From a virus (Duplodnaviria > Caudoviricetes), in IMG/VR virus record IMGVR_UViG_3300021971_000016, positions 1 to 24,936 of that record: a stretch of DNA of 24,936 bases; one strand, given 5' to 3'. Both the position numbers and the translations under genes were made by a program. Position 1 is the first letter of the stretch. Each line of letters starts with the position of its first letter. The notes below the pieces were generated by a model. It saw only the letters and a program-made list of their open reading frames with translations, was not told the origin of the DNA and searched no databases. Below are positions 5 through 1,648 of the stretch, piece after piece.

Positions 5-82
5 AGTGTGGCGAGTCTTTAAGTAGGCTTAGTTCTCTAAGCAGGACGGGTAAGGACGTGGGTTCGAATCCCACTCACACTA
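5..82 (+). ncRNA. Degenerate tRNA / tRNA-like element (possibly Leu-derived, 6-nt anticodon loop)
   Basis: Acceptor stem AGTGTGG(5-11)/TCACACT(75-81), discriminator A82. Perfect T-arm GTGGG-TTCGAAT-CCCAC (58-74). Possible D-stem AGTC/GGCT without the GG motif. Anticodon-like stem GTTCT(32-36)/AGGAC(43-47) has only a 6-nt loop, CTAAGC. 10-nt variable region; no encoded CCA. Confidence 0.6.
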
Positions 83-162: not shown

Positions 163-426
163 ATGAATGAGCAAGAATTTACTAAAGTGTGTAAAGAAAA
201 GGTAGTTGAATACGCAAATAAACATCTAGATAAGACTGACAATGCTTCTATCGATGAATCTAATGTTTATATTGTTTGGCAATGTAAGACGCTTCAAAAT
301 AACAAGGCTTTGCTATCAACTACATTAACCGATGGAATGTATTATGAGGCTACTTACAACGGTGACAAGAAGGAATTATATCTTGATGCCTACAAGAAAT
401 TTGATAATATTGAATATGATTTTTAG
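163..426 (+). CDS. Small phage protein resembling the DUF6275 family
   Basis: SD GGAGG at 150-154 favours ATG 163 over TTG 148. Motif VYIVWQCKTLQNNKALLST...DGMYYEATYNGDKKELYLDAYKK resembles DUF6275 (from recall). Confidence 0.8.
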   Translation: MNEQEFTKVCKEKVVEYANKHLDKTDNASIDESNVYIVWQCKTLQNNKALLSTTLTDGMYYEATYNGDKKELYLDAYKKFDNIEYDF

Positions 427-438
427 CTAGAGGAAAAG

Positions 439-535
439 AATGTGACGTTCAGTATATAGATACATGCGGTTACTCTACCGATTAAAAAAGGAGCATTTTA
501 GGCAGGGTCGCCTATTTAAAAAAGGCCCGCACATT
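439..535 (+). ncRNA. Structured RNA: two tandem H-type pseudoknots enclosed by a closing stem
   Basis: Closing stem AATGTG(439-444)/CACATT(530-535). PK1: S1 CGGT/ACCG, loop CTCT pairs with GGAG(490-493). PK2: S1 TAGGC/GCCTA, loop GGGTC pairs with GGCCC(524-528). Both have a 6-nt loop and a 9-nt WTTAAAAAA linker. Confidence 0.6.
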
Positions 536-579
536 TGGTTTAACCCTCAATAACCAGTTATGATAAAGCTGGTTATATC

Positions 580-723
580 ATGTGGAGGTATGGCTACTGC
601 TAAGCAAAGTTTTTTCGTTAATCCCAACTTGTTGCACAACAATTGCAGACATTCCTTTAATTTATTTCAAATACTAATTCCTTTTAAGACTTAGTAATTC
701 GGTTCGATTCCGGATATCCACAT
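580..723 (+). ncRNA. tRNA-like scaffold RNA with a large internal loop
   Basis: Acceptor-like stem ATGTGGAGG(580-588)/TATCCACAT(715-723) with one mismatch. T-arm TTCGG-TTCGATT-CCGGA (698-714). Helix TGCTAAG(598-604)/CTTAGTA(690-696) closes an ~85-nt A/U-rich loop. Confidence 0.6.
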
Positions 724-732
724 TTTTTTATT

Positions 733-805
733 AGTTTGATAGCTCAATAGGTTAGAGCACTCATCTTATAAGTGAGAGACGTAGGTTCAAGTCCTAACCA
801 AACTA
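733..805 (+). tRNA. tRNA-Ile(UAU)
   Basis: Cloverleaf: acceptor AGTTTGA/CCAAACT, D-arm GCTC-AATAGGTTA-GAGC, anticodon arm CTCAT-CTTATAA-GTGAG (anticodon TAT at 767-769), T-arm GTAGG-TTCAAGT-CCTAA, discriminator A805. Two mismatches at the acceptor/T junction; no encoded CCA. Confidence 0.88.
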
Positions 806-812
806 TTTATTC

Positions 813-846
813 GAGATCAGTTAATTATAACTGGTCTTTTTGTTTT
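813..846 (+). terminator. Rho-independent terminator after the RNA cluster
   Basis: GAGATCAGTT-AATTAT-AACTGGTCTT stem-loop followed by TTTGTTTT. Confidence 0.7.
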
Positions 847-1162: not shown

Positions 1163-1648
1163 ATGGCAAAAGCTAAGTATAAAGAATGGCTAGAGCCGGA
1201 AGGCTTACTGTTAATCAAAGGGTGGAAAAATAACGGCTTAACTGATGAACAGATTGCAGATAATATTGGCGTCAGTCATAGAACTTTTGAACGTTGGAAA
1301 TCAGAACATAGTCAGATAAGACAGGTAATAAAAAGAGGCAAGGAGCACGCCAATTATGCCGTAGAAAATGCACTGCTTAAAAAGGCATTATCAGGTAACA
1401 CAACGGCAATGATATTCTGGCTCAAAAACAATTACCGTGAGAAGTATTCAGATAGTCAAAAGACACCACTTGAAGAACAACTCACTAAAGAACAAATTAG
1501 GCGTGCTAAGGCTGATGCTGATGTTGCTCAAGCTAAAGCTGACATATTTACAGGTAATAATGGAAGTAACGAAAATACAATTATTATAGATGACATTGGA
1601 GATGATGATGACGGCAGCGAAAGCAACGACAAGCAAGACAATAATTAA
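1163..1648 (+). CDS. terS: Terminase small subunit (HTH)
   Basis: SD AAAGGAGG; HTH LTDEQIADNIGVSHRTFERWK; TAMIFWLKN motif; C-terminal IIIDDI; directly upstream of terL. Confidence 0.9.
   Translation: MAKAKYKEWLEPEGLLLIKGWKNNGLTDEQIADNIGVSHRTFERWKSEHSQIRQVIKRGKEHANYAVENALLKKALSGNTTAMIFWLKNNYREKYSDSQKTPLEEQLTKEQIRRAKADADVAQAKADIFTGNNGSNENTIIIDDIGDDDDGSESNDKQDNN

Follow-up and report, generated by a model that had tools for sequence, protein, structure and literature searches.

A family of tRNA-shell RNAs with exchangeable loops upstream of phage terminase genes and its proposed antisense function

The stretch of DNA analysed here (the window; 24,936 nucleotides of the virus record IMGVR_UViG_3300021971_000016, Caudoviricetes) holds the late region of a siphovirus and encodes the terminase small and large subunits (terS and terL), portal, head, and holin. 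In its non-coding stretch at 427-858, upstream of terS, an element at 582-722 was found in which a tRNA-like shell encloses a large open loop; it is referred to below as the tRNA-shell RNA. TerL is 62-64% identical to that of the Lactobacillus phages phig1e and phiEF-1.1. The phage is phig1e-like and presumably temperate with Companilactobacillus as its host, the host and the temperate lifestyle being predicted because, among named genomes, the closest TerS (77%) comes from a contig of Companilactobacillus futsaii. The parts of the RNA, together with the hairpin directly in front of it, are as follows.

582..722, + strand: tRNA-shell RNA, predicted mature form of 141 nt ending in A722 with no encoded CCA (sequence; covariation; covariance-model score of 168 bits, by construction)
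582..588, + strand: 5' strand of the acceptor stem, partner 715-721, 6/7 pairs; position 3:70 is G-C
588..597, + strand: mini D region with a 3-bp stem and a GG-containing loop; GG in 21/21 members, predicted to dock with the T loop as a putative elbow contact
598..604, + strand: 7-bp helix replacing the anticodon stem, partner 690-696 (sequence; covariation)
605..689, + strand: cargo loop of 85 nt, weakly structured (fold z +0.76), with 17 C versus 7 G
620..625, + strand: 5' C-cluster AATCCC; close relatives usually have a TCTCCC-type cluster a few bases further 5'
643..658, + strand: conserved seed including the first ATTCCTTT (651-658), predicted pairing region
677..684, + strand: second ATTCCTTT, not conserved on comparison of relatives
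698..714, + strand: T arm with the canonical T loop TTCGATT (sequence; covariation)
551..575, + strand: leader hairpin with a conserved ATGATAAAG loop, immediately 5' of the shell; 6/7 pairs changed on both sides, fold z -5.0

The acceptor stem, the 7-bp helix, the T arm, and the loop of about 85 nt proposed in the first-pass annotation were all confirmed at their positions in the sequence, and two further outer pairs (580-581 with 722-723) extend beyond the acceptor. The acceptor mismatch of the window lies at G587, where most relatives have T, and all seven acceptor pairs are present in 18/21 members. The D region had been called stemless, which fits 9 of the 15 close members, where only 1 bp is left, but the stem has 3 bp in the other six, including the window, and 4-5 bp in 6/6 distant members. 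Both copies of ATTCCTTT and AATCCC lie where they had been placed, but only the first ATTCCTTT is conserved among relatives; the second copy and the exact AATCCC are not. The single-sequence fold is unremarkable (z -1.29), and the minimum-energy form lacks the 7-bp helix. Folding of the window alone is thus no proof of the shell structure, and the support comes from the relatives.

Among 18 aligned members, 95.0% of 442 cells were paired, none of 500 shuffles was as good and slid controls reached 25-38%, the structure being taken from the window and the 18 sequences being related. Changes on both sides were observed at 11 of 25 pairs, five in the shell and six in the upstream hairpin. The tRNA-shell element is therefore real. 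In both Logan contigs and genomes the shell is constant and the loop variable, and loops are exchanged between scaffolds; the expectation that homologs keep the scaffold and swap the loop was borne out by alignment, covariation, and this exchange.

For the distribution of the family (L numbers denote extracted loci, G numbers genomes, and W the window's own RNA), BLAST matched 15 of 41 Companilactobacillus genomes, and 11 full elements were extracted from 10 genomes. The covariance model matched 20 of the 41, one match being a tRNA, so that relatives are present in 19. The match L294 (G036) was dropped as a tRNA in a plastid-like context; by eye, its contig (G036:C18) carries photosystem-like and rps14-like genes, which suggests plastid contamination of the assembly. 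When 151 genomes were sampled across the whole bacterial family, only three Companilactobacillus genomes scored well, with few candidates scored per genome, and three weak covariance-model matches were ordinary tRNAs. Scaffold patterns recovered 16 viral-contig loci (11 duplicates of known elements and 5 new variants) and 14 metagenome loci, six of them family members, and the exact window patterns had no match among viral contigs. A stricter shape finder gave 38 distinct matches in 1.2 Mb, two of which look spurious, versus none in 0.41 Mb of locally shuffled sequence. When 430-860 was compared with annotated phages by BLAST, the best 40 of 133 records covered the tRNA-Ile only.

The members lie between an ArpU-type gene and terS. 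New members were upstream of terminase-like genes in a phage context at 12/13 loci (by eye), and the upstream neighbour was confirmed as an ArpU-family gene for L001 and assigned by resemblance only elsewhere. In the arrays, which precede unrelated late modules, several shells are mixed with true tRNAs and hairpins, and the order varies. Other phages (L011, L013, L025, L026, L029, and L147-L160) have a second lineage of scaffolds arranged in the same way, and one further scaffold was found in a Limosilactobacillus contig (L010 = L086).

Several other forms were seen in the arrays. Loop-less 'empty' shells consisting of acceptor, GG linker, and T arm stand behind the same leader hairpin in L263 (1501-1589), L287, and L293. 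In the L097 loop (G030), an internal unit with the seed is tandemly duplicated, giving a 124-nt loop. L095 and L098 have three other kinds of tRNA-like shell in a row upstream, one with a shrunken anticodon arm. In the window itself, a further tRNA-like shell without a D arm lies at 5-82 (+) (fold z -4.1), followed by a terminator at 118-137; its relatives in L100, L101, and L109 are more complete, and two of them reach a tRNA score in Rfam (34.8 bits), with a TAA-centred anticodon-like loop. A conserved non-coding block of ~90 nt between cassettes, starting with AGCCGTGAA, is present in L001 (3538-3625), with similar blocks in L100, L101, L102, and L109, and has no Rfam match. A reverse-strand open reading frame (ORF) across the loop was not conserved (by eye).

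The RNA has the tRNA-like traits of a 7-bp acceptor stem and a T arm with a TTCRA loop. As a tRNA (RF00005) it was rejected, there being no ARAGORN or Rfam call at 580-723 (733-805 was called) and a loop of 85 nt instead of the 7-nt anticodon loop. Assignment to a known Rfam family with another function had been named as a possible refutation; no family matches the window RNA, and ARAGORN and Rfam were also blank for the relatives in 30 loci. There was no covariance-model match to the C4 antisense RNA (RF01695). The bacterial Y RNA (YrlA, RF02553) reached 19.1 bits versus a gathering threshold of 69, over a span from the T arm to the D arm of the next tRNA, and a Ro60/TROVE partner was not found in 5/5 genomes searched, some of them drafts. 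Literature searches of titles and abstract openings, with supplements outside their reach, returned no description of this family. It is a real, previously undescribed RNA family, kin to processed phage antisense RNAs, for which a function can only be proposed.

The loops of the family are biased towards words complementary to Shine-Dalgarno (SD) sequences. C exceeded G in 15 of 18 loops on differing scaffolds, and the words most enriched over base shuffles in the 18 loops were CCCC, CTCC, CCTT, TCCT, and TCCC. TCCTT occurred 8 times versus 1.6 expected and CTCCT 7 times versus 0.8, and the anti-SD score of the 18 loops combined gave p 9e-8 with base shuffles and p 2e-4 with dinucleotide shuffles. 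In addition, exact matches of 6-8 nt to the host 16S tail were found in the divergent scaffolds L259, L296, L291, L001, L100, L010, L029, and L151. The seed at 643-658 is kept in 15/15 close members; it is found again in L102 and on the divergent scaffold L292, being partly kept in L102/L166. Duplex energy against one SD consensus was no better than that of dinucleotide shuffles (0/21 members; lowest p 0.105).

Targets were predicted among 1808 predicted starts covering 85% of the chromosome of G029, whose prophage carries a close member, with genes found by a simple caller. The top-100 sites fell on SD positions more often than those of dinucleotide shuffles in 10/10 loops (six shuffles each). 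The best partner of the shared seed was cas1 (PF01867) in a CRISPR locus with the layout cas9-cas1-array, with cas9 and csn2 named by resemblance. The predicted helix covers the SD and AUG of cas1 over 18 bp for the common allele and 14 bp for that of the window; cas1 ranked 6 (W), 1 (L093), 3 (L095), 4 (L102), and 7 (L292), and when only the sequence outside the anti-SD core was shuffled, the helix of the common allele gave p 0.03. Outside the RNA gene, the seed complement occurs in just two places in the part of the G029 chromosome covered, both over start codons (cas1 and prmA), the pattern having been drawn up after the cas1 match was already known. The gene yslB (DUF2507) reached rank 2 with the window loop and rank 1 with that of L102, and it suits C646 of the window better than cas1 does. 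All cas1, yslB, and prmA matches are confined to the G029/G008/G007/G001 group, so that the three are candidates within one host clade, none of them established, and cas1 is a lead rather than a result.

Other target predictions were set aside. The gene hsdM ranked 2/1808 for L093, but 1074 for the window, and had no match in the own host of L093. Patterns of an SD plus ATGAAAGTAAT led to unrelated genes sharing a common N-terminus. Among the matches listed, prophage starts could not be told apart by unrestricted duplex folding. One G029 CRISPR array of 9 spacers showed no match to the phage DNA searched beyond 15-nt chance matches.

The surroundings of the RNA in the window contain the following features.

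163..426, + strand: gene of 87 aa, PHROG 918 (function not assigned by PHROG)
466..495, + strand: predicted H-type pseudoknot 1, sequestering an SD-like AAGGAG; both stems show paired changes among 14 distinct copies (regular-expression match, by eye)
501..528, + strand: predicted H-type pseudoknot 2; paired changes among relatives, by eye and not tool-counted
733..805, + strand: tRNA-Ile(TAT), next cassette of the array (ARAGORN; Rfam 58.1 bits)
813..838, + strand: terminator-like hairpin, end of the array (sequence and fold scan)
1163..1648, + strand: terS, downstream anchor (PHROG 309, E 1.7e-44)

The 87-aa gene recurs between cassettes and terS in several relatives. Terminator-like hairpins, at 118-137 and 813-838 (+), lie between array and terS, and late transcription therefore depends on additional promoters or on antitermination; at 427-580 no promoter was convincing. 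Hairpins like that at 551-575, with the loop ATGATAA(A/C)G or TGGAA(A)G, stand a few bases 5' of most shells, divergent ones and those of L288, L289, L291, L292, and L297 among them, and the leader hairpin is possibly a protein-binding or antitermination signal. The module thus reaches beyond the shell on its upstream side, with the hairpin at 551-575 and the two pseudoknot-like elements within 466-528. No ORF follows the SD-like AAGGAG of pseudoknot 1, and neither pseudoknot-like element has an Rfam match. Their tandem layout is reminiscent of type III antitoxin pseudoknots. It also resembles that of the tandem STAXI pseudoknots, which are sometimes found near c4 RNAs (PMC2864571, excerpt).

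The product is held, with moderate confidence, to be an RNase P-released, multi-target antisense RNA of tRNA shape, and it likely silences bacterial messages, since its open-loop motifs are complementary to ribosome-binding sites. The RNA would be transcribed from a late promoter, and the late transcript, to judge by its substrate-like shape, would be cut by host RNase P at 582 and trimmed at 722 by a 3' tRNA nuclease. The elbow formed by acceptor, T arm, and GG would keep the RNA stable, and the open loop may pair by short seeds with several bacterial ribosome-binding sites, leading to less translation. A more specific and rather doubtful extension is that, in temperate phages of lactobacilli, natural tRNA scaffolds carry exchangeable antisense loops as modules and that this RNA acts as a novel kind of anti-CRISPR, covering the SD and start of cas1 and blocking spacer acquisition during lytic growth.

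Several results weigh against the antisense reading. The RNA runs yielded contigs only, with partial cover in two metatranscriptomes; X20 and X22 had two incomplete contigs each, spanning about 522-608. X15 and X17 are possibly DNA, and the runs therefore give no evidence of expression. The anti-SD-like motifs of the first-pass annotation hold at the level of the family, where C-cluster words are the top-enriched ones, but the window loop alone is within chance (p 0.27; range p 0.11-0.32). The 18 loops are not independent, as five have shared ancestry and seven came out of a search whose model had been trained on loops of this kind; control stretches likewise gave p 0.04-0.05 in the anti-SD test, and three short loops are without any anti-SD. 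The reverse complement of the loop had been read as a set of translation starts; this turned out not to be special, start-codon complements being present in 3/15 versus 2.4 expected, with spacings of >16 nt from the GG uncounted. Loop-less shells occur in three genomes (G003, G016, and G027).

The target predictions add further points of this kind. SD positions were favoured in every loop, but the best helix was never above the best of its own shuffles (10/10 loops). A single shared motif underlies all five cas1 ranks, and the helix of the window gave p 0.28 because C646 mismatches. A matching cas1 start was found in G029, G008, and G007, plus G001 with one change, that is in 4 of the 28 starts read, and was absent from the other 24; no start was obtained from the G027 locus, and in several genomes the second cas1 was without a locus. 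The yslB match was present in the same four genomes only and absent from the other 17 of 21 read. Among carriers of the RNA, G037 has a non-matching cas1, no cas1 was seen in G005, G020, and G019, and G030 has a weak match (drafts). In four lysogens carrying the seed no matching cas1 was seen. Since the matches are confined to one clade and these four lysogens are unmatched, the targets do not covary with the RNA across hosts. Searches with long complements (the L001 24-mer in its own genome, and the window 22-mer and the L288 20-mer in 41 genomes) gave no target, the window 22-mer having three stray 3-mismatch matches. The first-pass idea of a stable multi-target antisense RNA is thus backed by the scaffold and the family-level motif bias, but not by the window loop alone or by a covarying target.

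An explanation with a modest chance of being right is that the RNA is a decoy which titrates a host protein, such as a defence nuclease acting on tRNA or on the anti-SD tail of 16S, or a protein that binds pyrimidines, by means of its tRNA elbow and anti-SD mimic and without mRNA pairing. Toxins that cut the anti-SD exist, and a decoy accounts both for C-cluster enrichment without start-codon enrichment and for the lack of a covarying target; the array, with its true tRNAs and pseudoknots, may also fit a counter-defence cassette. However, the loop motifs vary (TCCTT, CCCCC, CCTCC, and CCTCT) like SD variants of different mRNAs and not like one 16S copy, and the conserved seed reaches beyond the anti-SD part. 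The shell could also serve as a processing signal comparable to the t-elements known from plant mitochondria, letting RNase P and RNase Z release the flanking pseudoknots, leader hairpin, and tRNA, with the loop secondary. This is unlikely: the loop-less shells behind the same leader hairpin in G003, G016, and G027 and the strong covariation of the leader hairpin and pseudoknots speak for it, but the 16-nt loop seed is kept while the flanks diverge, also on a different scaffold, and the C-rich bias of the loops is non-random, which is more than a pure cutting signal would need.

That the RNA is a C4-like regulator of the phage's own genes, in the lysogeny module or among the tail genes, is improbable. 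Over 15 bp, the RNA of G029 matches the start of a membrane gene of the lysogeny module that is present in three prophages, and it has a match in two parts (8+17 nt) within its own baseplate gene, but the latter occurs in 1/41 genomes, the cassette stands before unrelated late modules, and no own-prophage start ranked consistently high among 538 starts in 12 regions, the best own rank of the window being 45 in a scan that covered the window without the phage early region. Very little speaks for a miniature transfer-messenger RNA (tmRNA) or SmpB sponge, in which the shell would be the tRNA-like domain of tmRNA and the frame ADIPLIYFKY* (645-677) the tag. The topology is similar and the window loop has a GCA-started 10-codon frame, but position 3:70 is G-C in 16/17 members and A-C in one, never G-U, and the first codon is GTA in 16/17 and GCA in the window only, with varying frame length, frameshifts, and no stop in 4/17. 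There is also no CCA, the hosts have a normal tmRNA, ARAGORN made no tmRNA call, and Rfam RF00023 matched merely an 11-nt T-loop fragment (7.1 bits). A decaying tRNA pseudogene with a neutral insertion is hardly credible: it would suit the acceptor mismatch and unremarkable folding energy of the window copy, but is largely refuted by covariation: every helix shows compensatory changes. In addition, about half of the Companilactobacillus genomes have the element, and the seed is conserved.

Several known systems resemble the tRNA-shell RNA in part. C4 acts on its own operon, and the CI RNA of P4 is a similar phage antisense RNA. RNase P processes the phage C4 antisense RNA of P1/P7 (PMC11143913, excerpt), and the listed occurrences of the c4 motif are in Proteobacteria and phages of these bacteria (PMC2864571, excerpt). 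C4 is likewise a small phage RNA in an RNase P-cut precursor; here the cut is predicted, and mRNA pairing of unpaired segments is proposed. Unlike C4, the tRNA-shell RNA combines a true T arm with a single large loop that is exchangeable, it lies in the late leader, and no consistent own-phage target was found among the 538 starts in 12 regions. The T4 RNAs C and D (RNAC and RNAD) resemble tRNAs at their ends and are about 140 and 120 nt long. They are described as small late-expressed RNAs of unknown function from the phage tRNA region, and no anti-SD loop is mentioned for them in the excerpts available (PMC3014915, PMC9697503). The likeness to them is by description only, and no T4-like match over 580-723 was present among the best 40 of 133 phage BLAST records.

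Mycobacteriophage DS6A encodes a tmRNA consisting only of the tRNA-like domain; like the present RNA, it is phage-encoded and amounts to the upper half of a tRNA that a helix closes off (PMC4131195, excerpt). In contrast to that tmRNA, the tRNA-shell RNA lacks G3-U70, a conserved tag frame, and CCA, and a GG mini-hairpin replaces the tmRNA D loop. Firmicutes have C-rich antisense small RNAs (RsaE/RoxS, FsrA, and FasX) with unpaired UCCC/CCUCC-type motifs, for which, as here, pairing with G-rich ribosome-binding sites is proposed. Those RNAs are host-encoded and have no tRNA shell, whereas here a phage tRNA mimic has its cargo exchanged between scaffolds. In the engineered tRNA scaffold for recombinant RNA, cargo RNA replaces the anticodon arm; the present scaffold differs in being natural, with a reduced D arm, no CCA, and a cargo under selection. 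RNA-based anti-CRISPRs (Racrs) mimic the repeats of CRISPR RNA (crRNA), whereas the tRNA-shell RNA, if cas1 is the true target, would likewise be a phage RNA acting against CRISPR but would block cas1 translation by antisense, so that spacer acquisition and not interference would be affected. Unlike the tRNA-shell RNA, allo-tRNAs keep the anticodon arm (PMC5389517, excerpt).

As T4 RNAC and RNAD illustrate, phage tRNA regions have long been known to yield small RNAs of unknown function, and the whole tRNA-shell family has been missed by annotation tools. The family is common, occurring in about half of the Companilactobacillus genomes searched, and these are tractable food bacteria. The fixed tRNA shell is separate from the exchangeable loop, and the function is therefore testable by seed mutants and reporters. 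If cas1 is a target, the RNA would provide an antisense route to blocking CRISPR adaptation, which was not found in the titles and abstract openings searched. If the antisense reading is true, the phage would rely on the tRNA-processing enzymes of its host to produce silencing RNAs that are stable.
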